A DNA stretch of 32,000 bases from Candidatus Iainarchaeum sp. (GCA_030688545.1 JAUYHT010000002.1:386566-418565), one strand, 5' to 3'; counted from the stretch's first letter, positions 4,793-32,000 are shown. Notes: generated by a model from the sequence alone, not told the origin. Made by a program: numbers and translations.

Positions 4793-4826
4793 AAGACCCT
4801 CATCGTGATTGGGAAGAGGAAAGGAA

Positions 4827-5314: not shown

Positions 5315-5337
5315 GAGGCAGTCCTTTCTCGGGGAGT

Positions 5338-14896: not shown

Positions 14897-14902
14897 CATC
14901 GT

Positions 14903-15400: not shown

Positions 15401-15457
15401 AGGGTTGGCGCGGAAAACGGGCTGGCATTTTAAAAGGGTTTTTCGGGGGAATGGGGT

Positions 15458-15868: not shown

Positions 15869-15893
15869 TGGAGTGGGAAGAAAAGAATTCGCC

Positions 15894-16178: not shown

Positions 16179-16211
16179 GTCAGAGAATATGAAGGAAAGG
16201 AGAACCAACCC

Positions 16212-16532: not shown

Positions 16533-16572
16533 GGAAAAAAGGTTTAAGGGGCGACCATCACCATTGGATGAT

Positions 16573-17355
16573 ATGATGGATAAGCATCGCCGGAAAGCGT
16601 TCCATATCTTCAAATTATTCTCGGAAGAGCGCCTGGAAAAGACATTCGCCAAGGTGTTTGATCAGAACACCATCCACGTGCTGCACACCCTCGCCTCTCA
16701 AGGGCATATCGATCATGTCGAGTTCACCATTTCCACGGGAAAAGAAGCCCACGTATTCCGAGCTGTAGATAAAGGGGGGAATTACCGGGCGGTCAAGATA
16801 TACAAGATTGAAACCAGCGACTTCAATAATATGCAGGATTATTTACGATTCGATAAACGATTCGCCAACGTGAAGAATGAGAAGCGGAGCATCGTGTTTG
16901 CATGGACGCAAAAGGAGTTCTCGTCCCTACGAAAGTTGCGTGAGGCCGGGGTGAATGTCCCCATGCCCCTGGTGGCTAAGGATAATGTGCTAGTGATGGA
17001 ATTCATAGGGACAGATGGGGGAGCGAGCCCGATGCTAAAGGATGCACGCATAAGGGACCTGGAAAAATTTTACAAAGGACTGGTGGGGAACATCGCCAAG
17101 ATGCTCGCGGCAAAAATGATTCACGGGGACTTGAGCGACTACAATATTCTCGTGAAAGACGACATACCCATCATTATTGATTGTGGCCAAACCTTCCCAA
17201 CCACCCACCCGAACGCCAAACACTTTTATGAACGGGACCTCAAGAACCTACTGAAAGTAATCCATCGGTTGGGAAAGAAGGATTTGACGTATGACGAATT
17301 CTATGGGGATGTGAAACGGGAGAAGGAAAAACTTTCAGGGTGGGGGAAGGGGTAA
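16573..17355 (+). CDS. rio1: RIO-type serine/threonine protein kinase
   Basis: Start trimmed to the ATG at 16573, after the aIF1A stop. STGKEAHVFRA (nucleotide loop), AVKIYK (catalytic Lys), IHGDLSDYNILV (catalytic loop) and IIDCGQ (metal-binding loop). Confidence 0.9.
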   Translation: MMDKHRRKAFHIFKLFSEERLEKTFAKVFDQNTIHVLHTLASQGHIDHVEFTISTGKEAHVFRAVDKGGNYRAVKIYKIETSDFNNMQDYLRFDKRFANVKNEKRSIVFAWTQKEFSSLRKLREAGVNVPMPLVAKDNVLVMEFIGTDGGASPMLKDARIRDLEKFYKGLVGNIAKMLAAKMIHGDLSDYNILVKDDIPIIIDCGQTFPTTHPNAKHFYERDLKNLLKVIHRLGKKDLTYDEFYGDVKREKEKLSGWGKG

Positions 17356-17534
17356 GTGAATGGGCAATTATGTATAAATATACTACGTACGCTCCGTGAC
17401 TTTGTAAAGATCCAACCGGAAAAAAACCGCTCATTTGACTTATTATTTTGCTGGTCCCGGACACAATGCTTATAGCCATTTAGCCCTTATTCTTCCTATA
17501 GCGCCCGGAAAAGACGCTCTGATCCCCCCCTCCC

Positions 17535-18065
17535 ATGCTCGATGAATTCATGATCCCCAAGGAACGGATCGCCGTCCTTATCGGCCCTAATGGGCAAACC
17601 AAGAAAGAAATCGAGCAGCGCACCCACTGCCGAATGGGAATAGACAGCAAATCCGGGGACATTTCAATCGAAGGGGAGGACGCCTCCCACGTCCTCACCG
17701 CGGGAAACGTGGTCAAGGCTATTGGACGCGGTTTTTCCCCCCCGCATGCCTTCCGCCTATTCGAGGAAGACCATTACTTCGAGATCATCTACCTTCCTGA
17801 TTTGCTAGGGAAAGACTGGAAAACCCTCCAATCCAAAAAGGGCCGCATCATTGGGAAAGAAGGGATCATCCGAAAGAAGATCGAACAGGACACCCACACC
17901 CTCATCTCGGTGTATGGGAAGACCATTTCCATCATCGGGAAACCCGATGCCCTAGCCCGAGCCGTGCAGGCTGTTACGATGCTGGTCAAAGGAGCGGAGC
18001 ACGCCACTGTATTAAATTACTTACGCCAATCACTCACAGCGCCCGAGGAGTTCGAATTCAGGTGA
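17535..18065 (+). CDS. KH-domain RNA-binding protein (archaeal Dim2/Pno1-like)
   Basis: Two KH-like units: IAVLIGPNGQTKKEIEQRT and RIIGKEGIIRKKIEQDT. Position after the Rio kinase matches the usual archaeal gene order. Confidence 0.85.
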   Translation: MLDEFMIPKERIAVLIGPNGQTKKEIEQRTHCRMGIDSKSGDISIEGEDASHVLTAGNVVKAIGRGFSPPHAFRLFEEDHYFEIIYLPDLLGKDWKTLQSKKGRIIGKEGIIRKKIEQDTHTLISVYGKTISIIGKPDALARAVQAVTMLVKGAEHATVLNYLRQSLTAPEEFEFR

Positions 18066-19780
18066 AACCCAAAATTATGCCCGACGAAAAAACACTGACC
18101 CGAATCGCCAATCCCACCGCGGATGACCTGGCGAAGGAATTCCGCGAGCATTCCGTGGCGGAATTCTTCAAGAAGAACAAGCAAATGCTCGGGTTAAGTG
18201 GCAAGACGAAAGCACTCACCACCATCATTCATGAATACATCACCAACTCCCTGGACGCGTGCGAGAATGCCAACATCCTGCCTGAAATCGAGGTTCATAT
18301 CAAGGAGCTGGAGGCCGAACACTATGAGGTTACGGTGGCCGACAACGGCCCTGGGTTGACACGCGAAACAGTGGGAAAAGCATTCGGCCAATTGCTCGCA
18401 GGAACCAAATTCCATCGCCTCATGCAGATGCGTGGACAACAAGGGATAGGCGCCAGCGGCGCCACCATGCTCTCCCAGATGACGACAGGAAAAGAGATCC
18501 ATGTCATCACCGGAAATGATAAGGAAGTTATTTCCTGCGACCTGTCCATCGACGCCAAATACAACCAACCCAAAGTCCACAACATCAAGATTCTTACTCG
18601 AAAATTCCGCGGCACCATCGTGAAGGCGGAATTCAAGGAAATGAAATACGTAAACAACGAACAAGGCCCCCTCGAATACGTGCGACGCACCGCCATTGCC
18701 AACCCCCACGCCAAACTAACCTTTACCGACCCATCCGGACAAACCATCGCATTCGAACGCACCGCCAAAACCATTCCTGACAAACCAGAGGAAGTCAAGC
18801 CCCACCCTCGCGGGGTGACAGTGGACGAACTGCTCAACCTCGCCAAATACACCCAAGCCAGACGCACCAATAGCTTTCTCAAAATCGAATTAGATAGAAT
18901 GGGGGATACCGCAGTCAAAGAAGTGGGGGAAAAGGTATCTTTCGACCTGAACAAGGACCCCCACGCCCTTTCATGGAGGGAGATCGAGGAAATGGTGAAA
19001 GCATTCAAAGACATTACCTTCATCGCCCCCCGCACCGATGCCTTACGCCCTATCGGGGAAGAGCAGATCAAGAGAAGCCTCCAAACGATTGTGGAGCCTG
19101 AATTTTTGTCCGTGGTGACACGGAAACCCCAAGTGTCAGAGGGCGGATATCCTTTCCAGGTGGAAGTTTCAGTCTGTTATGGGGGTAAGGCCGGCCGCCG
19201 GGTGGGGGATGAGATGCGCATCGAGATCATGCGCTTTGCCAACCGCGCCCCGCTCCTGTTCGACACGGGGGGTTGTGGCATCACGGAGGCGGTGAAAACC
19301 GTGGAGTGGAAACGCTATGGCATCAGAGACTCGGAAACCGCTCCCCTAACGGTATTCGTGAACCTCATTTCCGTCCACATCCCCTACACGGGAGCGGGGA
19401 AGCAAGCCATTTCCAACGACGAAGAGATCGTGGAAGAAATCCGATTGGCCCTCATGGAATCGGGACGGAAGACTGCCCGCTATATCATCAGCAAAGAACA
19501 CGAACGCCTCAAACAAGAGAAGAAACGCATCTACATGAAATACGCCATCGAAGTGGCCATCGGATTAGGAGAACTCATAGAAAAAGATCCCAAACCCATC
19601 GAGCACAAACTATTGGAAACCGTCGCCAAACGCCTGAAACTGGATGAACAACAAGAAAAGAAGATGGAAGCCCAGACCGATGAGGATTTAGAAAAGGAAC
19701 TGGAACGCTTGAACAAAGAAGATAAGAAAAAAGGCAAGGCGAAGAAGCCGGCCGAAAATGAGGAAGGCGGTGAGGAATAA
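18062..19780 (+). CDS. top6B: DNA topoisomerase VI subunit B
   Basis: GHKL/Bergerat-fold motifs HEYITNSLDA, VADNGPGL and GQQGIGASG. The track's GTG start at 18062 overlaps the KH gene stop by 4 nt; the alternative ATG is at 18077. Highly charged C-terminal tail. Confidence 0.95.
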   Translation: MKPKIMPDEKTLTRIANPTADDLAKEFREHSVAEFFKKNKQMLGLSGKTKALTTIIHEYITNSLDACENANILPEIEVHIKELEAEHYEVTVADNGPGLTRETVGKAFGQLLAGTKFHRLMQMRGQQGIGASGATMLSQMTTGKEIHVITGNDKEVISCDLSIDAKYNQPKVHNIKILTRKFRGTIVKAEFKEMKYVNNEQGPLEYVRRTAIANPHAKLTFTDPSGQTIAFERTAKTIPDKPEEVKPHPRGVTVDELLNLAKYTQARRTNSFLKIELDRMGDTAVKEVGEKVSFDLNKDPHALSWREIEEMVKAFKDITFIAPRTDALRPIGEEQIKRSLQTIVEPEFLSVVTRKPQVSEGGYPFQVEVSVCYGGKAGRRVGDEMRIEIMRFANRAPLLFDTGGCGITEAVKTVEWKRYGIRDSETAPLTVFVNLISVHIPYTGAGKQAISNDEEIVEEIRLALMESGRKTARYIISKEHERLKQEKKRIYMKYAIEVAIGLGELIEKDPKPIEHKLLETVAKRLKLDEQQEKKMEAQTDEDLEKELERLNKEDKKKGKAKKPAENEEGGEE

Positions 19781-20883
19781 TGGTCGACACCAAGACAAAA
19801 GACAAGGAAGTCATCAAGAAACTCGAGGGATTGGGTGAACAAGTCTATAAGCAGATCAACCAAGGCGCCAATCCCACGGTGGCACTGCCCGTGCGCTCCC
19901 TCGGAAATATTTTCTTCGACCAGAAATCCCGCACCATCAAATTGGGAGACAAGATGTCCGAACGCCAATTCCTCAACATCGCCCACACCCGGAAATTCAT
20001 GCAGACCATGCTCGTGGCGAACGAAATCAAGAAAGTCATCCATGAAAACGCGACTGTTTCCATCCGTGACCTCTATTACGCGCTCAAGCACACCATCGAA
20101 GGAACTAATGAAAATACTTTCGAGAATCAGGATGAGAGCGATCCTCTGATCGAGGACCTGGAAGCCTCGCTCAACCTGCTCCGCGAAGAGTTGCATCTTG
20201 CGGCCTCCGCCAAGGGCATCATCTCCGGGCCCATGGTCGTGAAGGATGGTAACGATACAATAGACCTCACGCGAATGGGGAGTGGAGGATGGAGCGTCCC
20301 ATCTAATGTGGAGGAGGACCGCATTGAGATCAAGAAGATGGAGGCGGATTATGTCCTGTTCATTGAAAAGGACGCCGTGTGGCGGCGCTTCAACGAAGAT
20401 AAGTTCTGGAAGAAAAACAACTGCATCATCATCACCGGAAGAGGGCAAGCGGCTCGGGGGGAAAGAAGACTCGTCCAGCGCCTCAACAAGGAACACAAAC
20501 TCCCCATCTACGCGCTCATGGATGCCGACCCGTGGGGGATGTACATCTATTCTGTGATAAAACAGGGAAGCATCTCCCTCTCCTACTCGGAAGAAAAGCT
20601 CGCCACCCCAGATACCAAATACATCGGCCTGACGGTGGGGGATGTGGAGACATTCAAAATCCCAAAAGAAGTCACTATCAAGCTGAACCAATTGGACATT
20701 AAGCGGTTGAATGAATTACAATCGTATGAATGGTTCAAGCACAAGAAATGGCAGGCCGAATTCGACTTGATGAAGCAGAAAAACATCAAGATGGAACTCG
20801 AGGCCCTCTCCAAGAAAGGCATCCGCTTCATCACCGAAACGTATTTGCCTCAGAAAATCAAGGAAGAAGACTTTTTGCCGTGA
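19780..20883 (+). CDS. top6A: DNA topoisomerase VI subunit A (Spo11 family)
   Basis: TAATG overlap with top6B. Catalytic-Tyr region SIRDLYYAL and Toprim motif ALMDADPWGMYIY. Confidence 0.95.
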   Translation: MVDTKTKDKEVIKKLEGLGEQVYKQINQGANPTVALPVRSLGNIFFDQKSRTIKLGDKMSERQFLNIAHTRKFMQTMLVANEIKKVIHENATVSIRDLYYALKHTIEGTNENTFENQDESDPLIEDLEASLNLLREELHLAASAKGIISGPMVVKDGNDTIDLTRMGSGGWSVPSNVEEDRIEIKKMEADYVLFIEKDAVWRRFNEDKFWKKNNCIIITGRGQAARGERRLVQRLNKEHKLPIYALMDADPWGMYIYSVIKQGSISLSYSEEKLATPDTKYIGLTVGDVETFKIPKEVTIKLNQLDIKRLNELQSYEWFKHKKWQAEFDLMKQKNIKMELEALSKKGIRFITETYLPQKIKEEDFLP

Positions 20884-21060
20884 TCCGCCGTGGAAAATGG
20901 TTCTGATTTCCAGATCTCTTTGGACGAAAAGCCTAGGTTACAAGGGACAAGGACTGAAAGCCATTTTTGAATTATATTCCCAAAAAAAAATCTTTTGGTC
21001 CAACCACTTCTAAAATGTTCAAATAACAACCTTTTTAATCGCGGATTTCTTGCAAAATGC

Positions 21061-22431
21061 ATGCCCCCTGCACTGGAATCCGCTTTTTCCGCCAGACGCA
21101 TCGCGGTCATTGGCGCTTCCCGGAACCCGGGTAAAATAGGGTATGTGGTGCTCGAGAATTTTGTTAAGGGCGGATTCTCTGGGAAGATTTTCCCCGTTAA
21201 TCCCCACGCGGAGAAAATCCTGGACCTGAAAACCTATTCCTCTATATTGAAGGTCCCTGGACGCGTGGATTTGGCGATCATTACCGTCCCCGCCGCACTC
21301 GTACCAAAAGTATTAGAAGAATGCGGCCGGAAGAAAGCGGGGAGTATTGTCATCATTTCTGCCGGTTTTTCTGAAATAGGAAATATGGAACTGACCACGC
21401 AGGTAGAAAAGGTGATGGAAAAGTACCCCCGCATGCCGGTCATCGGACCCAACTGCTTGGGGATTTTGGATACGCGCTCACACGTGGACACGCTGTTCCT
21501 CCCCCGCTACCGATTAGGAAGACCTAAACCCGGGGTCATCTCATTCATCTCCCAATCCGGGGCACTGGGAAGCGCCGTGCTGGATTGGGCGGGAAACAAG
21601 GAGTATGGCATCAACAAATTCGTTTCCTATGGAAACGCCATGGACGTGGATGAGGCGGAGCTCATCGAATATTTGGCGCAGGACGACACTACGAAAGTCA
21701 TATGCGTCTATTTGGAAGGCGTCCGAAATGGGAAGAAATTCTTCCATACGGCCCAAAAACTTTCAAAGAAAAAACCTGTGATCGTCATCAAAGGAGGGAT
21801 GAGCGTGGCGGGAGGAAAAGCCACGGCGTCGCACACCGGGAGCCTTGCAGGGAGTGGAAAAGTATTTGAGGCCGTGGTGGACCAGACAGGGTTGATTCCC
21901 GCACGGACGATGCAGGAAGTGTTTGATTTTGCCCGCACGATTGCCAGTGAACCTCTTCCCAAGGGGAACCGGGTCCAAATAATTACCAATGGGGGTGGGT
22001 ATGGGGTGTTGGCCACGGATGCCCTGGAAGACACTGGACTGGCCCTCGCAACCATGCGGGAAAAGAATCGAAAACCCATCATCGCCGTGTCTCCCTCCTA
22101 CGCGGTAATACGGAATCCCATGGACCTGACGGGAGACGCGGACAACCACCGCTTTCTTGTTGCGGTGGAGAACACGCTCAACGATCCTAATGTGGACAGC
22201 CTCATCCTCATCATGCTCTTCCAGGTCCCCACCCTCGATTCGGACATCATCGAGGGGTTGAGTGAACTATTGACCAAGCGTAAAAAACCGGTGCTCCTGC
22301 TCAGCGCGGGAGGAGAATTTGCCCAGATGCATATGAAACTATTGGAAAAAGAAGGCGTGAACACATTTGATGATCCCCATCAGGCGGCCCGGGCCCTGCA
22401 AGCGCTGACCAGATATGCCGAGAAAAAATAA
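21061..22431 (+). CDS. Acetyl-CoA synthetase (ADP-forming) alpha-like / CoA-binding succinyl-CoA-synthetase-fold protein
   Basis: RIAVIGASRNPGKIGY (CoA-binding Rossmann fold), IISAGFSE, GPNCLGI, and the ASHTGSLAG phosphohistidine loop. Start trimmed to the ATG at 21061. No ATP-grasp beta subunit is adjacent. Confidence 0.8.
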   Translation: MPPALESAFSARRIAVIGASRNPGKIGYVVLENFVKGGFSGKIFPVNPHAEKILDLKTYSSILKVPGRVDLAIITVPAALVPKVLEECGRKKAGSIVIISAGFSEIGNMELTTQVEKVMEKYPRMPVIGPNCLGILDTRSHVDTLFLPRYRLGRPKPGVISFISQSGALGSAVLDWAGNKEYGINKFVSYGNAMDVDEAELIEYLAQDDTTKVICVYLEGVRNGKKFFHTAQKLSKKKPVIVIKGGMSVAGGKATASHTGSLAGSGKVFEAVVDQTGLIPARTMQEVFDFARTIASEPLPKGNRVQIITNGGGYGVLATDALEDTGLALATMREKNRKPIIAVSPSYAVIRNPMDLTGDADNHRFLVAVENTLNDPNVDSLILIMLFQVPTLDSDIIEGLSELLTKRKKPVLLLSAGGEFAQMHMKLLEKEGVNTFDDPHQAARALQALTRYAEKK

Positions 22432-22436
22432 GCTGT

Positions 22437-23765
22437 TCAGGATAACCGCTGTTGCGGCTCCACTATTTTTGAAGGAAGAATAGGAGCGTTTCCTGGATCT
22501 GGCGCCTGGATAAGTTCCCCTTGTTCCAATTGCGCGACAATCCGCTCGAGGTTCTGCTTGTCCTCCAGGAGTTCGAACAACGTCTTCACGTCCATTCTGT
22601 CCTTGGCATTGGTCTGGTTCACGTTCTGCTCCAACAGTCCTAATCCCATTTGAGCGATGCTGCGCTTGGACGCATGCAAAGCGCGCAACTCCTCCACCTT
22701 GAAAACGAAAGGGGAGCCATTAAACCGCTTCGCGGGGGAGAAAAGGGCTTTCCCGGAGAATTCGAGCAGCACCTTCCCCAGATCCACATCTGCCTGGGAA
22801 TAGCCTTTAGCCAGGGTGCCCTTCAATTTGATTCTGTATAAGGGCAACAACCCCACGTGGGACGTCAGGTCTTTGGAAATTATCTCCCGGCAACGCTTTA
22901 GGATATTCTCGGGCCGGGCATCCTTGAACTTAAGGCAATGATAATAGAGTTTTCGCTGTTCGGGGAGGCGATGAAAAACCAATTCCCGGGTGCGGGTGTC
23001 ATAGAGGTACCATCCCTTCTCCTTCTGCCCCTCCAACCGTTTCATTTGAGTAAACACCGTGGATCCTGGAATGATCAAGCGTTTCCCCCCCCATTCCGTG
23101 AGGGAGGTCCAATGCAAATGCCCGTTAACGAGAAGATCGAAGCCCGAGGGAAGATCTTCCAATCCGATGGTGGCGACCATATCATCCTTGGAAGGAAGGA
23201 ATTCCTTGATGGACTGGTGGAGGACGAGGAGATTGGGCATGCCCGCTTTTGGTTGGGGGTTATATAGTTTCAGGGCTTCAAGGGCGCGCTTCTCGGGAAT
23301 ACCTGGCATACCATGAATGGCCACTTTTTCTGTTTCCCCACCAGGACCTTTTTTTTCCACCTCCACATGGGACGCGTGCAAACACACAAGGAAATTTCCG
23401 GTGTGCAACACATGCAACGCATTCGTGAGTCCCTTGGCACGGTATTCGTGCGTGCCCGCGATGGCGATGACGGGAATTCCCTGGAAAGAAAAAGCATTGG
23501 CATCCCCCTCCCGGGGAAAATGGGTGATGGAAATATTTTCAGGGGAAGGGGCCCGCTGGAGAATTCTGAAAAGGGTGAAACACTCATCCCATACCTCCTG
23601 CTCGGGAATCTTGTGGTCGAAAAGGTCCCCGGGGTGAAGGATCACATCCGGCTTCTCTTGGATGATGCCCTCCACGGCCTGCCTGAAACCCGCGAACGCA
23701 TCCTCCCCCCGGGAGGTTCCGCGGGCATACCCCAAATGGGTGTCGGAAACGATGGCGATGCGCAT
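22437..23765 (-). CDS. mre11: Mre11/SbcD-family DNA repair nuclease (metallophosphoesterase)
   Basis: Phosphoesterase motifs in order: IVSDTHLG, PGDLFDH, IAGTHE, LVLHQ and NGHLH. The likely start is MRIAIV at 23765; the track start is 23789. Confidence 0.85.
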   Translation of the reverse strand: MRIAIVSDTHLGYARGTSRGEDAFAGFRQAVEGIIQEKPDVILHPGDLFDHKIPEQEVWDECFTLFRILQRAPSPENISITHFPREGDANAFSFQGIPVIAIAGTHEYRAKGLTNALHVLHTGNFLVCLHASHVEVEKKGPGGETEKVAIHGMPGIPEKRALEALKLYNPQPKAGMPNLLVLHQSIKEFLPSKDDMVATIGLEDLPSGFDLLVNGHLHWTSLTEWGGKRLIIPGSTVFTQMKRLEGQKEKGWYLYDTRTRELVFHRLPEQRKLYYHCLKFKDARPENILKRCREIISKDLTSHVGLLPLYRIKLKGTLAKGYSQADVDLGKVLLEFSGKALFSPAKRFNGSPFVFKVEELRALHASKRSIAQMGLGLLEQNVNQTNAKDRMDVKTLFELLEDKQNLERIVAQLEQGELIQAPDPGNAPILPSKIVEPQQRLS

Positions 23766-23904
23766 GGAAAGAATAGGACTCAAAACCATTTAAGAGTTGA
23801 CCTAGGAGATTGGCTATATGGGGATTTAAGTGTGAAATAGGATACGCCAGAATCTTAACTTGCCAATACTGGCAGACGCACCCCTCCTGCGAAAGACGAG
23901 CAGA

Positions 23905-24654
23905 CTACTTCTTTCCTCGGATGAAACAAAACGTAAGAGTAGATTCAATTTCATTTTGATCCGAATGAAATGTCATTTTGTATTTCTCGCGATACCATTC
24001 AGGTAGATTCATGCAAATGGAAATAATCTCGTCTTTTTGTTTTGCGGATGCCTGTTTTGATTCACAAAAACCGCTCAGCCATTTTTTGTGCAGCTTTCCG
24101 ACACGCTGCTCGGTAACAATTATTCCGAATTGCTCGAATAAAGCACGTATCAGTTCATGGGACGGGAAAAGAGGATGGTGAGGCTCAGTCACACGAACGA
24201 TACTAGCAACAAATTCACGCTCGTTTTCGAATACAGCCCCCTCGATTACAAGCATTTTTCCACCAGTTTTCAATACGCGATGCATCTCACGAAAAGCCTT
24301 ATCGGGATTGACAAAATTTTGTAAAAGATTTCGACAGAGTACAAGATCAAATGATTTATCTAAAAATGGAAGATTTTCCCCATCTCCAACAACCAATTTG
24401 AACGATGGATGTGTCCTTTTGCATTCTGCTATCATTTCCTTTGAAATATCAACCCCCGTTAAATTTTTTATTTTAAGAAAATTCTCAAAATCTCCCTTTC
24501 CGATTCCAACGTCCAATGCAACTTCGTCTCCTGAAATATTTGCAAACTCAATAAGTTCAGTGTTGAATTCAATGTTTTTAACCCAAACTTTGCTATCCCA
24601 CGTCTTCGCAATTCGATCATAGGTGCGCTGAGTTTCCTCTTTTATCATAAACAA
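23905..24654 (-). CDS. Class I SAM-dependent methyltransferase (Methyltransf_11-like)
   Basis: Motif I VALDVGIGKGDF, post-I GVDISKEM, and LVLCRNLLQNF. The DNA is noticeably AT-rich compared with its neighbours. Confidence 0.8.
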   Translation of the reverse strand: MFMIKEETQRTYDRIAKTWDSKVWVKNIEFNTELIEFANISGDEVALDVGIGKGDFENFLKIKNLTGVDISKEMIAECKRTHPSFKLVVGDGENLPFLDKSFDLVLCRNLLQNFVNPDKAFREMHRVLKTGGKMLVIEGAVFENEREFVASIVRVTEPHHPLFPSHELIRALFEQFGIIVTEQRVGKLHKKWLSGFCESKQASAKQKDEIISICMNLPEWYREKYKMTFHSDQNEIESTLTFCFIRGKK

Positions 24655-24693
24655 TAAATGGCTAAATGCTATAAAAAAGATCAGGATAGATGG

Positions 24694-25377
24694 TTAGTAC
24701 CCTTTCCCGTGGGCGCGAGTAATATACCGGTTTTCGACCAGCCAGGGGGGAAGGTCTTTTACACTGGGAATGAGATGCTGAGGGTTCAAGCCGTGTTTGG
24801 TGAACATGGCTTTCGAATGGAAACCGGAGAGCACCCCGCAGAAATCGATGTTGTTTCCCCGCGCCGCGAAATAATCCACCGTGAGATCCCCCACATATAG
24901 TACTTCGTGCTTCCGAATCCTCTCTTTCTTCAATTCGAACAGCACCTCATCGAAAACCCGCGCGTCGGGCTTCTTGAAGCGCGTGCTCTGCTCGCCGAAA
25001 ACGAAGAGGAAATTTTTGGGGTTCAACGCGGTATGAGAAATGCGTTCCCACAATTGGTCCGTGGGCTTGTTGGAAAGAATGGCCGTTTCAATGTGGTGCT
25101 CGCGGAGAAAATTAAGCGTATCCAAGGCGCCCGGGATGAGGGGATAACGGGTTCCCTTCCTAATCTCATGGTATTTGGCAATGAAGGCGTTCACGTCGTA
25201 ATGGGGAAATAATGCCACCACCATCGTGTGCCAGGGCTTTCCCCAATACCGGAGGAACATGTTGAAAGAGGGCTTGGGCAGCCCTAACGCACGGGCGGTG
25301 CGGCAGTGGTTCTGGAAGGATACCATCCCGCTTTTTACCAGCGTATCGTCGAAATCGAATATGACCGCCTTGAGCAT
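24694..25377 (-). CDS. HAD-superfamily hydrolase (phosphatase-like)
   Basis: Motif I VIFDFDDTLV (DxDxT), motif II ILSNK, and motif III/IV K...YVGDLTVDY. Confidence 0.85.
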   Translation of the reverse strand: MLKAVIFDFDDTLVKSGMVSFQNHCRTARALGLPKPSFNMFLRYWGKPWHTMVVALFPHYDVNAFIAKYHEIRKGTRYPLIPGALDTLNFLREHHIETAILSNKPTDQLWERISHTALNPKNFLFVFGEQSTRFKKPDARVFDEVLFELKKERIRKHEVLYVGDLTVDYFAARGNNIDFCGVLSGFHSKAMFTKHGLNPQHLIPSVKDLPPWLVENRYITRAHGKGY

Positions 25378-25503
25378 GCTCCAGGCAGGTACAAGGGCAT
25401 TAAAACCCTTTTCGGGATAAATTCCCTTGAAATAGGCCTACCGCGGGATTGACGAAAGGAAATCCATCAAGGTGGGCCGTCGCCCTCAAGGGGCGAAACC
25501 CTT

Positions 25504-25574
25504 GCGGGGGTGGCAGAACGGTTATGCGCCGGCCTGCAGAGCCGGAAAACCGAGTTCAACTCTCGGCCCCCGCT
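25504..25574 (+). tRNA. tRNA-Cys (anticodon GCA), no encoded CCA
   Basis: Hand-folded cloverleaf. Acceptor GCGGGGG/CCCCCGC. D arm GCA-loop-TGC with GG in the loop. Anticodon stem CCGGC/GCCGG with loop CTGCAGA. Four-nt variable loop. T arm CCGAG-TTCAACT-CTCGG. Discriminator U73, the known tRNA-Cys identity base. Confidence 0.85.
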
Positions 25575-25762
25575 TAGGGTTCCACGTTAAAACGCGGTGA
25601 AAATAGTCGAAAACCGCGCTTCAACTGGGAATCAGAATAACGGTCCCCGCTTCGAGTTACGAGTTAAAGTGCGGTAAAATAAAGTAAGAACACCGCACTT
25701 CAACACGGAATTCAAATAGCGGCTCCCGCTTGGGTCTTCGCGTTGAAGCGCGCACCAACTGG
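25564..25762 (+). repeat. About 2.7 tandem copies of a roughly 78-bp unit, each starting with a copy of the tRNA-Cys 3' end
   Basis: CGGCCCCCGCTT (25564-25575, tRNA 3' end), CGGTCCCCGCTT (25641-25652) and CGGCTCCCGCTT (25720-25731), spaced 77 and 79 bp apart. Units 1 and 2 carry hairpins CGCGGT/ACCGCG (25593-25598 / 25613-25618) and GTGCGGT/ACCGCAC (25669-25675 / 25692-25698), each followed by CTTCAAC. Units 2 and 3 match at 38 of 55 positions in my ungapped hand alignment. Confidence 0.65.
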
Positions 25763-25770
25763 ATTTAAAG
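25763..25770 (+). promoter_or_regulatory. Putative TATA box for the integrase
   Basis: ATTTAAAG lies about 31 nt upstream of the ATG at 25801, immediately after the last repeat unit. Confidence 0.35.
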
Positions 25771-25800
25771 AACTTGGAAAAGCCAAGGTGCGTGATCCAC

Positions 25801-27084
25801 ATGGAAGACCATTTGTACAAGCGTCCACATAGTTTCGAGCTGCTTCGATCTCGAATTTGGCCAGATGAATTCCCATACAATGGGGCCAGTTACCGAGAAC
25901 GACGTGTATATACTTTGACACCCGCGAATCGGCTACTCCTTCGCCGCTATCTTGTCAATCTGGAAAACCAGAACTATGGACTTAACCGCAAGTACCGTCT
26001 CATCGAGATTATGGCAGTTTTAGGAGAAATGTTTTGTAGAGACTTCGAGTCCGCAACGAAAGATGACATACAAGGCCAAGAAGGGTTAGTGTCCAAGATT
26101 ATGCACAAATGGACCAATGACACTACAAAAGAGATGTATATCCAAGGCCTAAAACAATTTTACAAATGGTTCGGACAAACCACGGAGTACCCTGAAGTAG
26201 TGAAAGGAATTAAATTTCAAAAAAAGAAAGGAAAGAAGTTGCTCGATATTCCAACCGAGGAAAAAATAGCCGAATTAATTCAAGCTGCTGGAAATCCGAT
26301 GCACAAGGCAATGATTTCAACTATCTATAGTTCAGCTGGAAGAATAGGTGAAATCGCACGGCTGCAAGTCAAGGATGTAATATTCCAGGATGATGAAGCA
26401 GTGATCCATATTCTGCATAGTAAAACAGAGGAGCGGCAGGTTCTGCTCGTAGACTCAACCGTTCAACTTCTTCGCGAAGCATTACTCTATCATCCCCATC
26501 GGGACAAAGAAGACTTTCAAGATAGACTACTTTTTGTAAGCGTGGCACCATCTTCATATGGTAAGCCGTTTGGATATGCGGCTATTGTAAAAATACTTAA
26601 GCAATGTGCTGAGAAAGTCCGCATCAAAGGATTGCATCCTCATTTGTTACGCCATGCGAGAGCCACCCATTTAATTCAACGAGGACTAAATGAAATGCAG
26701 CTGAAGGTAGTTCTGGGCCATTCTTATTCCAGTCGCGCAACGGCAGTTTATCTCCACCTTAGTGGAAAAGATACCTATGATGCAATTCGAACAGTAAATG
26801 GAAAAAAGAGAATCACAGAAGAAAAACAAAATCCATTACTTGGAAAAAAATGCGATATCTGTGCAACCAACAATACCTTCGAAGACAAAGTGTGTCGAAA
26901 ATGTCAGCGGCCTCTTGGCGTCCTGGAGAGAATGGAATACAAAGATCAAATGAAAACATTGCAGGAACATATTTTGCAAATGGAGCAGCTAAATAATGAA
27001 AGAATGAGCAAGATGGAGAAAGCATACGATATGTTGCTTCAGGCCATTCTAAAACAAAGGGAGGCAACGATCCATCAGGTGTAA
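25801..27084 (+). CDS. int: Tyrosine recombinase/integrase with C-terminal zinc-ribbon and coiled-coil extension
   Basis: Catalytic residues in order: AGRIGEIARL (Arg I), HPHLLRHARATH (His-x-x-Arg), LGHS (His/Trp position) and AVYLHL (nucleophilic Tyr). C-terminal CDIC-x10-CRKC, then a heptad-like tail. Start trimmed from the TTG at 25774 to the ATG at 25801. Confidence 0.9.
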   Translation: MEDHLYKRPHSFELLRSRIWPDEFPYNGASYRERRVYTLTPANRLLLRRYLVNLENQNYGLNRKYRLIEIMAVLGEMFCRDFESATKDDIQGQEGLVSKIMHKWTNDTTKEMYIQGLKQFYKWFGQTTEYPEVVKGIKFQKKKGKKLLDIPTEEKIAELIQAAGNPMHKAMISTIYSSAGRIGEIARLQVKDVIFQDDEAVIHILHSKTEERQVLLVDSTVQLLREALLYHPHRDKEDFQDRLLFVSVAPSSYGKPFGYAAIVKILKQCAEKVRIKGLHPHLLRHARATHLIQRGLNEMQLKVVLGHSYSSRATAVYLHLSGKDTYDAIRTVNGKKRITEEKQNPLLGKKCDICATNNTFEDKVCRKCQRPLGVLERMEYKDQMKTLQEHILQMEQLNNERMSKMEKAYDMLLQAILKQREATIHQV

Positions 27085-27374
27085 TCGCTATAGCAACGGT
27101 ATGAAGAATTACATCCTTTGAGGATGGTACAACTGTATTCATCCCCATTCTTGCATGCAATATCACAGGCCGGAATTATCTTTCGGTCTTCGCAAAAGAA
27201 AACACATTCATTTACATCGTTTTTTTCCACACAATTATTGTACTTTCTTTCAACATATCCACCGCTCCAGACAGCTAAAATAATGAAAAGTAGAACCACC
27301 CCAATCGCAGCCCACCACATCCATGAAAGCGAGTGGAGTTTCTTTTTCTGCAGGTCTTTTTTATCTTGAGCCAT
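27075..27374 (-). CDS. Small single-pass membrane protein with a Cys-rich ectodomain
   Basis: Basic N-terminus, TM segment WMWWAAIGVVLLFIILAVW, then 8 Cys in about 55 aa (NCVEKNDVNECVFFCEDRKIIPACDIACKNGDEYSCTILKGC...RC). Convergent with the integrase, overlapping its 3' end by 10 nt. Confidence 0.5.
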   Translation of the reverse strand: MAQDKKDLQKKKLHSLSWMWWAAIGVVLLFIILAVWSGGYVERKYNNCVEKNDVNECVFFCEDRKIIPACDIACKNGDEYSCTILKGCNSSYRCYSDYT

Positions 27375-27511
27375 AATCTCAACCTATAGATTGAGAATTA
27401 ACCGTCAATCCGTTAAAACCTTTACGGCGGACTGACCTCCCTCCTCCTAAAGCTTCTTTATTACAAGTAGTATCAGGTATCGCTTTGGTCAGGTTAACCT
27501 CGGGGGTTGGT

Positions 27512-27706
27512 ATGAAGTGCGCACTATCGCCAGCGGTACAGGAGTGGATCAGGACTGCAATAGAAATGGGATGGGCTGATCCACATGACTCAATCAGCGA
27601 TCCATATTCAAATGACTCTATAATTTCACGCCGGGATAAGAATTATCGGGAAGTTTATTCGTTAAGTTTGGTCCGCCAAAAACAACAGATGAAAGAATTT
27701 CATTGA
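27512..27706 (+). CDS. Possible small RHH-like protein
   Basis: ATG at 27512 with GGGGGT upstream and a TATA-like CTTTATTA at 27456-27463. The N-terminus KCALSPAVQEWIRTAIEMGW has a strand-helix pattern. The 3' third overlaps the convergent wHTH gene, so the true extent is doubtful. Confidence 0.3.
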   Translation: MKCALSPAVQEWIRTAIEMGWADPHDSISDPYSNDSIISRRDKNYREVYSLSLVRQKQQMKEFH

Positions 27707-28244
27707 TAGAGGATAAGTTTTGAATTTCCCTTTCGATTTTTTTTACGACATCTTCGAGTTTTGTTTTCCCTTCAGCTGCTTGAACTCGAAATGATTCACG
27801 CAAAGTTTGGCGTGTTTTGTAATTCATTATAAGGTTGGTCGAGAATGACAAAAATGCGCGTTCCAAATTTTCAACTCGAAGTTTTGGTAGTTGTTTTTCA
27901 ATGTACCAATCAAATTCGTTTGTAAAAGATTTGTTGGACAAAAATTGATCCTTATCTTTTTCTTTAAGTGGCCGATTAGCATCAACCCATTTTAAGTAAA
28001 AGCTCAAAATTCCCCTCATATTTGGTGTGTATTTTTTTATTCGTTTATCTTCTTCTCGGGACTCAATGACAATAAGATCTTCGTCTCCGAGTATTTTTAC
28101 ATAGACCCAAACATTTTGTTCTTTTTCTGAAATAGCCTCCGTAATCTGCGCAACGCTGTCTTTTCCTTCGATAATTTTTTGGAGTGTGCGAAAAATAACT
28201 GTCGAAGTTAGTGGATAGTATGTTTGATTGGATTCACTTGGCAT
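27618..28244 (-). CDS. Winged-helix DNA-binding protein, candidate element repressor/regulator
   Basis: The N-terminal VIFRTLQKIIEGKDSVAQITEAISEKEQNVWVYVKILGDEDLIVIESREEDKRIKKYTPN fits an ArsR/TrmB-like wHTH layout. Divergent from the plus-strand small-gene operon. Start trimmed to the ATG at 28244. Confidence 0.55.
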   Translation of the reverse strand: MPSESNQTYYPLTSTVIFRTLQKIIEGKDSVAQITEAISEKEQNVWVYVKILGDEDLIVIESREEDKRIKKYTPNMRGILSFYLKWVDANRPLKEKDKDQFLSNKSFTNEFDWYIEKQLPKLRVENLERAFLSFSTNLIMNYKTRQTLRESFRVQAAEGKTKLEDVVKKIEREIQNLSSINEILSSVVFGGPNLTNKLPDNSYPGVKL

Positions 28245-28454
28245 CGATAGCAATGAATAAGTCAAGGCTTTAAACTACCTATTGTTTTTCCCGCGAAAAA
28301 ATGAATTATGTTCGTTGAAATATCGACGACGGCGGAATGGCCCCCCTCTCTGAACGCCCATTTAAACTCAAATACATTATGCTCTGCATAAGGTGATTTG
28401 TGTGTATACTTACCCAGTGCATACCAAAGCAACAGCAGAGAGGGAGGAAGATCA

Positions 28455-28604
28455 GTGAGTGTTATTCTCTCTCCAGAGGTCGCTGAGAGCCTATTGCTCG
28501 CATACGAAGCGGGCGGGTGGAGACCAAAGACCCCTGAGGAAGAATCGCTTCTTGACCAAGCCAAAAGACAATCGGAGGCAAATCGCGTGCAAATAAAAAT
28601 GTGA
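28455..28604 (+). CDS. Possible small RHH-like protein
   Basis: In-frame GTG at 28455 preceded by GGGAGGAAG. VSVILSPEVAESLLLAYEAGGW has a strand-helix pattern. An 8-bp hairpin (28608-28628) follows the stop. Confidence 0.35.
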   Translation: MSVILSPEVAESLLLAYEAGGWRPKTPEEESLLDQAKRQSEANRVQIKM

Positions 28605-28679
28605 CCAAAGGGGAAAGCCCTTCCCCTTCAGCCGATTTGAGTCGCTCGTTCCAAAACAATACAACCCAAGGTGAAATCG

Positions 28680-28898
28680 ATGAAGGATTCAACCAATAAA
28701 AAACCCATTCACGAGATAACCGTCCTTTCCTGGAAAAACAGACAATCTACAAGATTGCCAATACCAACCCGATTTTTACGAAAAAATTTCCCAGAGCTCG
28801 GGCGCCAATCTCAGAAAGGAATTCTCATTGCTTCTCGAACTTCTGATGGGAAGCCTGAAATTCGTTTTGTTTGCACGGAGGCGACTGTCTGCCAATAG
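28680..28898 (+). CDS. Possible AbrB/SpoVT-like small DNA-binding protein
   Basis: STRLPIPTRFLRKNFPELG...GILIASRTSDGKPEIRFV resembles the swapped-hairpin 'itIPkeir' signature. ATG at 28680. Confidence 0.35.
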   Translation: MKDSTNKKPIHEITVLSWKNRQSTRLPIPTRFLRKNFPELGRQSQKGILIASRTSDGKPEIRFVCTEATVCQ

Positions 28899-28918
28899 CA
28901 GGTCGAAAATGATTCCTC

Positions 28919-29089
28919 ATGCGACGAATATTCCGAAAAAATCCGCTCATGGACTTAATGGCAAAACAAGATCCAGAAGGATTCAGGGAAGCAGTTCAAA
29001 AAGCCGCCGCTGAAGTCGCGAAAGAATTCCAAGAACATAATGCAAAACTGAAAGCAAAAGCCGAAGAACAGCGAGAAGGGGGTGTATGA
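28919..29089 (+). CDS. Unlisted 56-aa helical, charged ORF
   Basis: Below the ORF-track size cutoff. My translation is MRRIFRKNPLMDLMAKQDPEGFREAVQKAAAEVAKEFQEHNAKLKAKAEEQREGGV. It looks more protein-like than the listed overlapping ORF at 28828-29013, and its stop overlaps the next ORF's start region. Confidence 0.35.
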   Translation: MRRIFRKNPLMDLMAKQDPEGFREAVQKAAAEVAKEFQEHNAKLKAKAEEQREGGV

Positions 29090-29444
29090 AGTGACCAACC
29101 CTAAAGATATTCAATACTATTCAGCAATGGAAAAAGAGCTGCGACACTCCCAAGTTGAGAAAGCATACAAACTACTTGAGCATGACTGCATCGAATACGA
29201 TCATGTTCGAAAACGATTCATCTGCAAACCAATTAGGGGATACAATTCCACCACTTACATTTTCGAACGTATTCCAAAAAAGATTCCTATCGGGGAAAGC
29301 TCGATTTCTCACGAGTGTAACTGTCAAGGGTATCAAACCAAAAAACGGAAAGGAGAAACGCCGTTTTGCAGCCATCTCTTAGCGCTTCATTACTGGTTTA
29401 ACCAGCGAAACAAATCGAAAGGCTGGGGGAAGTACCGCCAATGA
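29082..29444 (+). CDS. SWIM-type zinc-finger protein
   Basis: CNCQGYQTKKRKGETPFCSHLLALH matches the CxC-x(n)-CxH SWIM signature. The start is uncertain: GTG at 29082 or ATG at 29127. Confidence 0.6.
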   Translation: MYEVTNPKDIQYYSAMEKELRHSQVEKAYKLLEHDCIEYDHVRKRFICKPIRGYNSTTYIFERIPKKIPIGESSISHECNCQGYQTKKRKGETPFCSHLLALHYWFNQRNKSKGWGKYRQ

Positions 29445-29545
29445 ACCCAGGCATTACATGCTACGATTGCAACGGGACTGGAATGAACCCCTTCTCTACT
29501 CGTCCAGAGAATTGCCCAACGTGCAAGGGAACGGGACTACTATGA
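29441..29545 (+). CDS. Unlisted 34-aa mini-protein with two CxxCxGxG (DnaJ-type zinc-finger) motifs
   Basis: My translation is MNPGITCYDCNGTGMNPFSTRPENCPTCKGTGLL. Its ATG overlaps the upstream TGA (ATGA at 29441-29444) and its TGA overlaps the next ATG (ATGA at 29542-29545). Confidence 0.45.
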   Translation: MNPGITCYDCNGTGMNPFSTRPENCPTCKGTGLL

Positions 29546-30177
29546 ATGACCCCCGCCATTCCGGAAGAAACTTCTTAGATTGTGGAGAAGGAAAAAGAAT
29601 AGAGGACACACTATTCACGAAGCAGAAACTTCTTACATTATCCAATGAAGTGAATAGTGAAGGCGACTCCCACAATGGAAGAAGAAACTTACTGAATTGT
29701 AGCGAAGTAGATATTCAAACATTGGAAAAGCTCTTACAGTATCCCCGAAAAAAAGCTGCACAACTCCGCAAAATCAGGGAGTTATGTCTGGCTAACGAAC
29801 GATTGTTTCTCAACGTACTGCAAAAGGAATTGGATATTCCATCGAAAAATTGGATATGTGGACTCATGCGTGAAGCAGCTCACGTGTTTGGCTTTCACTA
29901 TTATCCAGGAAATAAAAGCTTCCAAACCAACATCATGCGCATCGCGCCCCAAGATAGAGTAGGACATTCGGTCGTAGAAGTCTACGAGTCCTTTTCCTAT
30001 CACGGAGCAGGGGATACGCGCACGCTTCAATCCGTAAAAAATCAATTCCAATTATCGGACGAAGAGTTAGTCTCATTCGTTCAGCGAATCCAAAACGTTT
30101 CAGTTGGAGGATATCATCTTCGTCTGACCGGAAAATTGAACCAAAAATTGACTGAAAGGAGACTCTACAAAGCATGA
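29542..30177 (+). CDS. Hypothetical protein (211 aa)
   Basis: In frame with the track ORF 29458-30177. I prefer the start at the ATGA junction at 29542 (MNDPRHSG). Internal duplicated motif SGRNFLDCGEG / NGRRNLLNCSEV. Confidence 0.55.
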   Translation: MNDPRHSGRNFLDCGEGKRIEDTLFTKQKLLTLSNEVNSEGDSHNGRRNLLNCSEVDIQTLEKLLQYPRKKAAQLRKIRELCLANERLFLNVLQKELDIPSKNWICGLMREAAHVFGFHYYPGNKSFQTNIMRIAPQDRVGHSVVEVYESFSYHGAGDTRTLQSVKNQFQLSDEELVSFVQRIQNVSVGGYHLRLTGKLNQKLTERRLYKA

Positions 30178-30383
30178 TGTACCCATTCCGATGCACCAGC
30201 AAAAGTTGCAATATCATTGTCTTCATATCATCCTTGACCCCGCTCATACCAATGTGCCCATCCTGCCAAATGCACCCCATTGAATCAATATACTTAGTCG
30301 AGTGTGCCAAAACGGAAGAAATGAAAACAGAAATTTCTCCAGACAGATCTGTGACTCAACCAATGGAGGCTATCACTCCATGA
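30174..30383 (+). CDS. Small zinc-ribbon protein
   Basis: CTSKSC ... CPSC cysteine pairs. ATGA overlap with the upstream gene at 30174-30177. Confidence 0.5.
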   Translation: MMYPFRCTSKSCNIIVFISSLTPLIPMCPSCQMHPIESIYLVECAKTEEMKTEISPDRSVTQPMEAITP

Positions 30384-30598
30384 AAACCAAAACACAAATA
30401 ATCACCAAAACAGGAGGGACAATCAATTGGACAAACGAGGAGACATTAGAAATATCCTATGAAAAAGTTGAAACGATTCTCTCAGCGGCGATAAATCACT
30501 CCACTAAAATGGTGGTCATTCCCGCTCCTGGAAAAAAAGTCTGGATCCCCCTCGAACACATTGCCAGCATTTGGGTAGAGGAGACAAACGATGCGTAA
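30380..30598 (+). CDS. Hypothetical small protein (72 aa)
   Basis: ATGA overlap at 30380-30383. Start trimmed from the track ORF 30302-30598. Confidence 0.45.
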   Translation: MKTKTQIITKTGGTINWTNEETLEISYEKVETILSAAINHSTKMVVIPAPGKKVWIPLEHIASIWVEETNDA

Positions 30599-31118
30599 CA
30601 CTCTCAAAGAAATACCCGGCGGAACCATACGGGGCGAAACAAGCATGGCATACGCCGCCTTCCAAAAATACCGCGATATGGAAGAGAGGTCACTCCGCCA
30701 ACTGGCACAAACCCTATCAGAAAAGGAAGGGGGCAATACCGGGGCAAAACAGGGGCAGTTAGAGGTATGGAGCACACGATACAAATGGGTTAAACGCTGC
30801 CAAGAATGGGATGAATACCAAGACGCCATCCTCCGTCAAACCCACCTCAAGGAAATAGCACAGATGTCTAAACGCCAGGCCGAAGCGGCAAAGAGACTCC
30901 AAGAAAAGGGCTTACAAAAGATTGAGAAAACAAAGCCAGCAAAAATGAGCTTCGGAGATGCAACCCGCGCAGTGGTAGAGGGGGCAAAACTGGAACGATT
31001 GGCTCGCGGAGAATCCCAGTCCATTCAAGATAATCGAGTGGAGGTCGTTTTTACTATTGAAGAAGAGGGAGGTAAAACAGATGCTCACGACGACCCGTCC
31101 GAAAAAGATAACGATTAA
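30591..31118 (+). CDS. Putative terminase small subunit (HTH protein immediately upstream of TerL)
   Basis: RSLRQLAQTL...LEVWSTRYKWVKRCQEWD follows the HTH plus W-x-x-R-x-x-x-WD pattern common in small terminases. Coiled-coil middle and acidic tail. Its position immediately 5' of, and overlapping, TerL supports the call. Confidence 0.5.
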   Translation: MRNTLKEIPGGTIRGETSMAYAAFQKYRDMEERSLRQLAQTLSEKEGGNTGAKQGQLEVWSTRYKWVKRCQEWDEYQDAILRQTHLKEIAQMSKRQAEAAKRLQEKGLQKIEKTKPAKMSFGDATRAVVEGAKLERLARGESQSIQDNRVEVVFTIEEEGGKTDAHDDPSEKDND

Positions 31119-32000
31119 CTATCGACCCCTCCCAAAGCAAAAAGCATTTCATCAAGCACAAAACAAATTTACTGGATACATTGGCGGTTTGGGGTCTGGC
31201 AAAACCTATGCGGGAGCCATGAAAGCTATCAGCTTCATGCTGTCTCACCAGGGTTCACAAGGTATGATTGCAGCCCCCAATTATCCTATGCTGCGAAAGT
31301 CGACCATGCCAACCTTTTTCGAAATTCTGCCCCCAGAGCTCATCAAGAACTATCACAAAACATACCATGAATTAGAACTCATCAATGGTGCCAAAACCTT
31401 TTTTGTCTCCACGGAAAAACCTGACCACTTGCGCGGACCAAATCTTTCCTGGTGGTGGTACGACGAAGCATCAAGTGGATCACGAACATCATTCGATGTC
31501 TTAGTCGGCCGACTTCGTGTGGGGAAAGCAAAGGCATGGGTAACGGGGACTCCAAAAGGATTCAACTGGGTCTACGAACGTTTTGCCGATCCAATAAAAA
31601 AACTCCAAGACACTTTTCTTATTGCAAGCTCTTCCAGAGAAAACACCTACTTGCCTTCTGATTACGTTCCAATGTTGGAAAGAACCTACACCGGAGCGTT
31701 TGCAAAACAAGAAATTGAAGGAGAGTTCGTGGGATTTGAAGGATTAGTATATCCCGACTTCTCCTACGAGGCCCATTGCCGCCCGGAATTTCCAATCGAA
31801 AAACGAGGACTGCCCGCCTACGTGGGAGTGGATTTTGGATACACCAATCCCAGCGCCCTAATCCTCGTTACTGTCGACTCGGACGACCGCATATGGATCT
31901 GGGAAGAATTTTATCAATCGGGAGTATTTGTCGAAGAGTTGATTAAGCAGATTAAAACGTGGCAGTCTCAAGGATTCAATATTCATTCATGCTTTTGTGA
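31081..32000 (+). CDS. terL: Terminase large subunit (TerL), N-terminal ~306 aa; open at the window end
   Basis: Absent from the ORF track because there is no stop in the window. My translation is MLTTTRPKKITINYRPLPKQKAFHQAQNKFTGYIGGLGSGKTYAG...LSWWWYDEAS...WVTGTPKG...YVGVDFGYTNPSALILV. This gives Walker A GSGKT, Walker B hhhhDE, coupling motif TGTP, and the start of the RNase H-like nuclease domain (VDFG). Confidence 0.88.
   Translation, partial: MLTTTRPKKITINYRPLPKQKAFHQAQNKFTGYIGGLGSGKTYAGAMKAISFMLSHQGSQGMIAAPNYPMLRKSTMPTFFEILPPELIKNYHKTYHELELINGAKTFFVSTEKPDHLRGPNLSWWWYDEASSGSRTSFDVLVGRLRVGKAKAWVTGTPKGFNWVYERFADPIKKLQDTFLIASSSRENTYLPSDYVPMLERTYTGAFAKQEIEGEFVGFEGLVYPDFSYEAHCRPEFPIEKRGLPAYVGVDFGYTNPSALILVTVDSDDRIWIWEEFYQSGVFVEELIKQIKTWQSQGFNIHSCFC

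Follow-up and report, generated by a model that had tools for sequence, protein, structure and literature searches.

The window analysed here, a 32,000-nucleotide stretch at the end of a metagenome-assembled contig of 418,565 bp (JAUYHT010000002.1:386566-418565, assembly GCA_030688545.1), comprises archaeal host DNA up to an intact tRNA-Cys(GCA) gene and, beyond it, a putative integrated element that occupies the last 6.4 kb of the contig and probably represents the left arm of a tailed-virus genome. From the tRNA rightwards, the locus comprises (i) a block of tandem units, the first of which begins within the tRNA 3' end, (ii) a tyrosine integrase gene, (iii) minus-strand genes followed by a divergent intergenic region, (iv) a plus-strand run of small open reading frames (ORFs), and (v) the overlapping genes of the small and large terminase subunits, TerS and TerL, the latter interrupted by the end of the contig. 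The source metagenome-assembled genome (MAG) carries the submitter label Candidatus Diapherotrites archaeon (DPANN).

Insertion junction and attachment-site region

The tRNA-Cys(GCA) gene is located at 25504-25574 on the plus strand (ARAGORN; Rfam RF00005, 61.1 bits, E=1e-11). It is the sole tRNA detected by ARAGORN in the window, and an Rfam scan of the same stretch disclosed no RNA besides it. The original prediction placed an intact tyrosine integrase within 230 nt of this gene, in agreement with the ATG start of the integrase at 25801, which sits 226 nt past the tRNA end. The 3' end of the tRNA-Cys gene forms the left attachment site (attL) of the element.

To position the junction, the HAD hydrolase whose gene immediately precedes the tRNA on its left was used as a query, and the three contigs retrieved were aligned to the window. 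The host contig L169, from run SRR13727534, matches 14694-25576 at 100% identity and ends there; the element contig L082 (3.3 kb), obtained from the same run as the sole contig returned by an exact look-up of the integrase, is 100% identical to 25547-28886 and starts at 25547. The segment common to both, 25547-25576 on the plus strand, has the insertion junction 25576/25577 as its right edge; since this overlap measures exactly 30 nt, that is, k-1 of a k=31 graph, the assembly graph branches right after 25576. Contigs L170 (NCBI GCA_034375545.1) and L171 (Logan SRR26726065) are 99.4-99.8% identical to the window on the host side, through the whole tRNA, and part from it at 25577, two bases past the tRNA end. 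Following ...CCCCCGCTTA, L170 and L171 continue with TAACTTACAGTTGAAACGCGG and the window continues with GGGTTCCACGTTAAAACGCGG, the reading past the junction being TAACTTACAG... in the former and GGGTTCCACG... in the latter. Genomes that are otherwise nearly the same thus carry different DNA to the right of 25576, which makes 25576/25577 an insertion boundary at the 3' end of the tRNA gene, located to the exact base by the comparison of independent assemblies. Two separate NCBI MAGs, both labelled Diapherotrites, share identical copies of several flanking host proteins, and the integrase protein is on record in just one of the two.

The element also differs from the host DNA in composition, with a guanine-plus-cytosine (GC) content of 0.434 at 25575-32000 against 0.501 at 1-25503, and the lowest host window of the element's size (0.474) lies above the element. 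The sharp drop in composition described in the original prediction is exact in its spot counts (0.60 at 23401-23460 and 0.267 at 27901-27960), but the overall change is modest. Local dips to 0.40 exist within the host DNA, as observed at 11-12.5 kb, the position of an intein in the host MCM gene.

The attachment-site region comprises three tandem units of 77-79 nt (25564-25773, plus strand), starting at 25564, 25641, and 25720, each of them headed by the 12-mer CGGYYCCCGCTT, for which three matches were found against 0.02 expected by chance. The copy at 25564 is the tRNA 3' end, and those at 25641 and 25720 are further, diverged versions of it. Units 1 and 2 run on into a long imperfect palindrome, with hairpin z-scores of -1.8 for unit 1 and -4.9 for unit 2 and with at least one compensatory change between them, C-G to T-A, read from the sequence; unit 3 extends into the integrase start region. 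This organization suggests that the block of about 200 bp upstream of the integrase gene is an arm of the element's attachment site, in which the extra tandem units may either bind the integrase or be left over from tRNA captures in the past. No further copy of the core that might serve as a right-hand attachment site (attR) is present in the window, and a search for attP or attB with the core GAGTTCAACTCTCGGCCCCCGCTT returned no exact match in IMG/VR or in JGI metagenome contigs. The alternative flank of L170 and L171 resembles a fourth variant of the tandem unit.

Terminase genes and their relatives

The right-hand end of the window encodes TerS (175 aa; 30591-31118, plus strand) and TerL (31081-32000, plus strand), with TerS overlapping the start of TerL by 38 nt. 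TerS matches phrog_6299 (E=3.5e-20) and no model in Pfam or NCBIfam. TerL is read from ATG 31081, which is preceded by a GAGGGAGG ribosome-binding site, and matches phrog_2 (E=1.8e-45) and Pfam Terminase_3/Terminase_6N. It is represented by residues 1-306 of about 412, a portion that takes in the entire ATPase domain and enters the nuclease domain, of which just the first (Asp) motif lies inside the contig. These matches bear out the TerS-like gene and the clear TerL recognized in the original prediction, and all four motifs quoted there are present, namely GSGKT (31192-31206), WWWYDEA (31450-31470), TGTPKG (31543-31560), and VDFGYT (31828-31845). The corresponding NCBI entry, P0001 (306 aa), is 100% identical to the TerL fragment and annotated as 'partial'; because it ends at the same residue as the window, the window end is the contig end, and TerL is therefore cut by the assembly and not by mutation. 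Exact look-ups of TerS, of the partial TerL, and of a 211-aa protein encoded upstream of them returned no other contig on record that continues rightwards, and the TerL search matches included no full-length TerL of this element.

The best PDB matches of the window TerL are the TerL structures of Thermus phage G20c/P74-26 (5oe8 and 4zni), and the Walker A, Walker B, and coupling motifs together with the first nuclease Asp motif of the PBSX/G20c-type TerL are also found in the window protein. Its best NCBIfam match is the PBSX-family model TIGR01547 (E=1e-20), at 74.5 bits against a cut-off of 105 bits; a full-length TerL relative, P0002, scores 78.5 bits with the same model, also below the cut-off.

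The closest pair of terminase subunits is encoded on the 35.2-kb metagenomic contig L001 (SRR29333099_1509110), with 61% identity for TerS and 64% for TerL. The genes downstream of this pair comprise (i) a portal-MuF-methyltransferase fusion (phrog_18178, E=2.5e-50), (ii) a HylP-like gene, (iii) a neck gene (phrog_5), and (iv) a major head protein gene (phrog_24667, E=3.6e-37). The fusion (2931-6605) is a 1224-aa protein combining portal, MuF-like head-morphogenesis, and S-adenosylmethionine-dependent methyltransferase domains, and the major head protein gene lies downstream of the neck gene. A second relative, L172 (JGI Ga0394675_035998), encodes a TerL 56% identical to that of the window, followed by a portal 73% identical to the L001 portal, and both contigs preserve the gene order TerL, a gene of about 100 aa, portal. 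The presence of portal, neck, and capsid genes in L001 and of a portal gene in L172 indicates that this terminase clade belongs to real head-tailed genomes. Unlike the window, L001 displays two extra small genes between TerS and TerL, whereas L172 has a different TerS and an upstream DNA methyltransferase; none of the middle genes of the window is present in L001 or L172.

Beyond these contigs, the relationships are distant. Loci in GTDB genomes encode TerL proteins at most 45% identical to the window protein, mostly in Ktedonobacterales/Chloroflexota prophage-like regions and in a few archaeal MAGs (35-45%); the GTDB species representatives, searched with P0002 alone, returned nothing. The best IMG/VR match reaches 45%, and identity to any GenBank virus is at most about 30%, the best being Caudoviricetes sp. 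vir519 (host Methanofastidiosa) and the haloarchaeal virus HJTV-4.

A co-occurring variant of the terminase region was found in run SRR13727534, in which a 1015-bp contig (L164) shows 95% DNA identity to 30533-31547 of the window. The two TerS proteins are 87% identical, and TerL and the TerS C-terminus are near-identical. The differences concentrate in the N-terminal region of TerS, where the contig departs strongly from the window (at about 30590-30780) and where DNA recognition may reside. The co-existence of such variants explains the fragmentation of the assembly and argues against a dead relic.

Integrase, middle genes and host DNA

The tyrosine integrase (427 aa; 25801-27084, plus strand; MDP2666400.1) is read from ATG 25801, the start given both by NCBI and by an independent gene call, with an alternative TTG start at 25774. 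Searches with profile hidden Markov models (HMMs), which the original prediction had suggested for both proteins, were run and assign the integrase to Pfam Phage_integrase (PF00589, E=4.9e-23) and phrog_1 (E=5.7e-30), alongside the assignment of TerL to Terminase_3/Terminase_6N and phrog_2. The catalytic R, K, H-x-x-R, H, and Y residues all align, residue by residue, with those of XerA from Pyrococcus abyssi (PDB code 4a8e). The NCBIfam model XerA_Arch (NF040815) gives 119.8 bits against an equivalog cut-off of 220 bits, which is not reached; since the integrase and TerL fall below the curated cut-offs of XerA_Arch and PBSX, respectively, both are best regarded as divergent relatives of these families rather than members. 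Compared with XerA, the window integrase is about 140 aa longer, displaying an N-terminal extension and, past the catalytic Tyr, a C-terminal region (26830-27084) with a CxxC...CxxC zinc-ribbon (weak Pfam matches, E=0.007) and a coiled-coil tail. The possibility that the protein is the host's own XerA was rejected on account of the score below the cut-off, the extra domains, and the location inside the variable low-GC block.

The pNOB8-type archaeal integrases are XerA and XerC/D-type tyrosine recombinases that leave the integrase gene intact on integration. The window protein resembles the archaeal XerA/pNOB8-type enzymes in its XerA-like catalytic domain with the R, K, H-x-x-R, H, Y set, and its gene lies intact beside the attachment site, as in the pNOB8 type and unlike SSV-type integration, being not split.

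Just five relatives of the integrase were found in a word-indexed search. The integrase of L165, 48% identical, is located 65 nt past a tRNA-Ser(TGA) gene with a 124-nt intron, and those of L166 and L167, 35% identical, adjoin a tRNA-Gly-like gene on archaeal contigs that end at the integrase and hold genes for RNA polymerase and ribosomal proteins. These placements point to tRNA genes as the targets of this integrase family. Standard ARAGORN settings miss both kinds of tRNA gene, that is, the intron-bearing tRNA-Ser(TGA) at 1516-1725 of L165 and a putative tRNA-Gly(TCC) at about 9827-9938 of L166, which folds after insertions of 28 nt and 14 nt are removed by hand. A further related integrase, 54% identical, belongs to L083 (1-11589), which contains DNA methyltransferase, HNH, PD-(D/E)XK, and TrmB-like genes without virion genes. 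The L083 element is inserted next to a protein-coding gene, and the alignment of its integrase to that of the window covers the zinc-ribbon/coiled-coil tail to the last residues. Upstream of the L083 integrase lies a motif, TTCGCGTTGAATCGCCGACCAA, similar to that of the window, the pattern TTCGCGTTGAA.CGC..ACCAA being common to both loci, and L083 also holds the reverse complement of the unit-2 12-mer.

A minus-strand gene convergent with the integrase gene (27075-27374) encodes a protein of 99 aa that has a single transmembrane helix and a tail rich in Cys; the gene is also called on L082, and a role in lysogenic conversion or exclusion would be no more than a guess. The next minus-strand gene (27618-28244), likewise called on L082, encodes a 208-aa protein on the integrase side of the divergent region, and the position alone makes this protein a candidate lysogeny regulator. 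AlphaFold modelling of it, also given as a 215-aa ORF, from the single sequence gave an unusable result, with a predicted local distance difference test score (pLDDT) of 36. The divergent intergenic region (28245-28454, 210 bp) displays TTTAAA-type TATA-like boxes on both strands, read from the sequence, and may act as a genetic switch. On its other side, the plus strand opens with a 49-aa ORF (28455-28604) preceded by a GGGAGG ribosome-binding site and showing a strand-helix-helix-like pattern, reminiscent of ribbon-helix-helix (RHH) proteins, that is not called on L082.

The plus-strand operon continues with ORFs of 72 aa (28680-28898) and 56 aa (28919-29089), both read by translation, and 120 aa (29082-29444, with a CxCx14CxH SWIM-like motif), followed by the 211-aa protein (29542-30177) and by ORFs of 69 aa (30174-30383, with zinc-ribbon-like Cys pairs, CxxxxC...CxxC) and 72 aa (30380-30598, also a translation). 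The overlaps proposed earlier as a sign of translational coupling are real, comprising ATGA at 30174 and 30380, 8 nt at 30591, and 38 nt at 31081. Searches of the middle genes against Pfam, PHROGs, and NCBIfam gave nothing significant. The labels originally given to this region, winged helix-turn-helix, RHH, and zinc finger, are readings of the sequence: Cys motifs are visible in just two of the small ORFs (29082-29444 and 30174-30383), and no label has HMM support.

The 211-aa protein is predicted to comprise a coiled coil followed by tandem winged-helix domains. It has about 10-11 homologues among 1.84 billion representative proteins, on which Pfam is uninformative, and a confident AlphaFold model built from a 9-sequence alignment (pLDDT 76.8) displays the coiled coil and two winged-helix domains. 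Foldseek comparison of this model returned tandem winged-helix proteins, including Stn1, ESCRT-II, and RepE, all with a TM-score below 0.35, too low for a function to be assigned. The protein is a member of a rare family and, judging from the predicted fold, probably binds DNA. The N-terminal part of the 211-aa protein (29542-29800), comprising residues 6-87 of a longer 239-aa ORF, matches 17 separate stretches of P0137, a 1680-aa metagenomic protein, which suggests a short repeated motif.

The host DNA at 1-25500 encodes an intein-bearing MCM, Topo VI A and B, aIF2-beta, a RIO kinase, methionyl-tRNA synthetase, and a Mre11-like phosphoesterase, all of them ordinary archaeal information-processing genes. 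The core genes described as eukaryote-like in the original prediction (MCM, Topo VI, aIF2-beta, and RIO) are normal in any archaeon. An Asgard host was rejected in view of the Diapherotrites label in the NCBI records and because the genes called 'eukaryote-like' occur in archaea generally. In the MCM gene (9321-13238, plus strand), the P-loop domain harbours both the intein, which has a LAGLIDADG homing-endonuclease domain, and an HTH_3 segment. An intein with a LAGLIDADG homing-endonuclease domain is also present in the gene of a ParA/MinD-type ATPase (387-2618, minus strand).

Interpretation, alternatives and significance

Taken as a whole, 25577-32000 is probably the left arm of a temperate Caudoviricetes-type virus genome integrated at tRNA-Cys(GCA) of a Diapherotrites-labelled archaeon. 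What is directly observed is the anatomy of the locus, the boundary of the insertion, the compositional contrast with the host DNA, and the viral surroundings of the closest terminase relatives. The left arm of a tailed-virus-type element at tRNA-Cys, as first proposed, is sustained by the divergence exactly at 25577 and by a nearest TerS/TerL relative beside portal, neck, and major capsid genes.

According to this interpretation, a XerA-like integrase would recombine the attachment site of the element, comprising a copy of the tRNA 3' end and two diverged copies, with the tRNA 3' end, leaving the tRNA intact and producing the junction observed 2 nt past it. The layout suggests that the minus-strand 208-aa gene, facing the plus-strand operon across 210 bp, would form a lysogeny switch. 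The operon of overlapping small genes reads into TerS and TerL. Judging by homology, TerS would recognize viral DNA, which TerL, acting as ATPase and nuclease, would then translocate into an HK97-type capsid equipped with a portal. By analogy with the gene order of L001 and L172, portal, capsid, and tail genes would be expected just past the contig end, the next large gene beyond 32000 being expected to encode the portal. Half or more of the element is beyond the assembly.

Several observations weigh against this interpretation. The contig ends inside TerL, before any portal, capsid, tail, or lysis gene or right-hand attachment site, and the alternative flank in L170 and L171 measures just 17-27 nt and resembles the first hairpin of the window, so that it could be an empty site or a different resident element. 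The regulator assignments are without HMM support in Pfam, PHROGs, and NCBIfam, and the same searches disclosed no recognizable replication gene in the roughly 2 kb between the putative switch and TerS. Furthermore, the host taxonomy follows the submitter labels of two MAGs, the source MAG not being found among the GTDB representatives, and no independent contig carries host and element together, all other retrieved assemblies breaking at the junction.

Among the alternatives, the one that best survives holds that the element is virus-derived but non-autonomous, being (i) a decayed remnant, (ii) a domesticated packaging element of the PBSX or gene transfer agent type, or (iii) a helper-dependent capsid-forming satellite. 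Such an element would fit the very short early region, with about 2 kb of small ORFs from the switch to TerS and without identifiable replication genes, the PBSX family as best NCBIfam match of TerL (74.5 bits, below the cut-off of 105), the end of the sequence at TerL residue 306, and the use of the same integrase family by the non-viral-looking L083 with its methyltransferase, HNH, and PD-(D/E)XK cargo. Nevertheless, every ORF of the 6.4 kb is intact, packing is tight, stops overlap with starts, and the integrase retains all its catalytic residues. In addition, the co-occurring variant differs mainly in the TerS N-terminal region yet stays in frame, which looks like selection and not decay, and downstream of the closest TerS/TerL relatives lie portal, neck, and capsid genes (L001) or a portal gene (L172). 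On balance, a non-autonomous element is unlikely, while keeping a real share of the probability.

A second alternative is that a free, non-integrated viral genome was joined to the host by the assembler through sequence common to the virus attachment site and tRNA-Cys. In its favour, every other retrieved assembly, namely the Logan k=31 contigs and a second MAG, breaks at 25576, no other assembly has host and element DNA on one contig, and the MAG contig itself stops just 6.4 kb into the element. On the other hand, the 418-kb MAG contig crosses the junction, and assemblers would normally break at an unresolved repeat; this explanation is highly unlikely, and even if true, at least 30 nt identical to the host tRNA-Cys 3' end beside an integrase would make the element a temperate virus of this host, with its description as integrated being all that changes. 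Finally, a non-viral integrative island with captured terminase genes is barely credible, since the integrase relatives with non-viral cargo (L083) that would speak for it are outweighed by the position of TerS and TerL, adjacent, overlapping, and in canonical order at the end of a co-directional operon, and by the preservation of TerS and TerL as a pair next to structural genes in L001.

Integration by tyrosine recombinases at the 3' end of tRNA genes is textbook knowledge, as is packaging driven by terminase. As a probable integrated temperate virus, the element resembles the archaeal tRNA-integrated Caudoviricetes proviruses in its tRNA, tyrosine integrase, and TerS/TerL module within a compositionally distinct block, and differs from them in being known from the left arm only, with a distant TerL and middle genes almost without homologues. 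Archaeal proviruses have been defined as complete on the basis of their major capsid protein along with three markers, integrase, tRNA, and direct repeats, and the tRNA-bounded tailed proviruses include those of Woesearchaeales/Nanoarchaeota hosts (PMC11705971). Several DPANN-associated virus families have been named, as reported in the citing article (Wu et al. 2024 Nat Microbiol, cited in PMC13573593), and DPANN prophages have been described from acid mine drainage sediments (PMC12647753). A limited literature check found no paper on a provirus in a Diapherotrites-labelled host and no mention of the run and assembly accessions.

The element adds a distant member to a type of provirus that is already well known. 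It works like those described, its biology is conventional, and thinking on how such elements operate is unchanged by it. The TerL distances (at most about 30% identity to GenBank viruses and at most 45% in IMG/VR) make an undescribed archaeal virus group plausible, although terminase and integrase alone do not set the family level. A stronger proposal, in which the element represents the first sampled member of a family-level lineage of temperate Diapherotrites-infecting tailed viruses and the three tandem units constitute a multi-site platform for the zinc-ribbon integrase or a record of tRNA captures, is tentative and rather doubtful. In practical terms, the locus provides a lead for targeted reassembly, and the divergent TerS/TerL pair and the integrase are possible seeds for finding the rest of the virus group. 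For the organism, the tRNA-Cys attachment site provides a direct virus-host link for a Diapherotrites-labelled DPANN archaeon, in lineages for which few viruses have been assigned to particular hosts.

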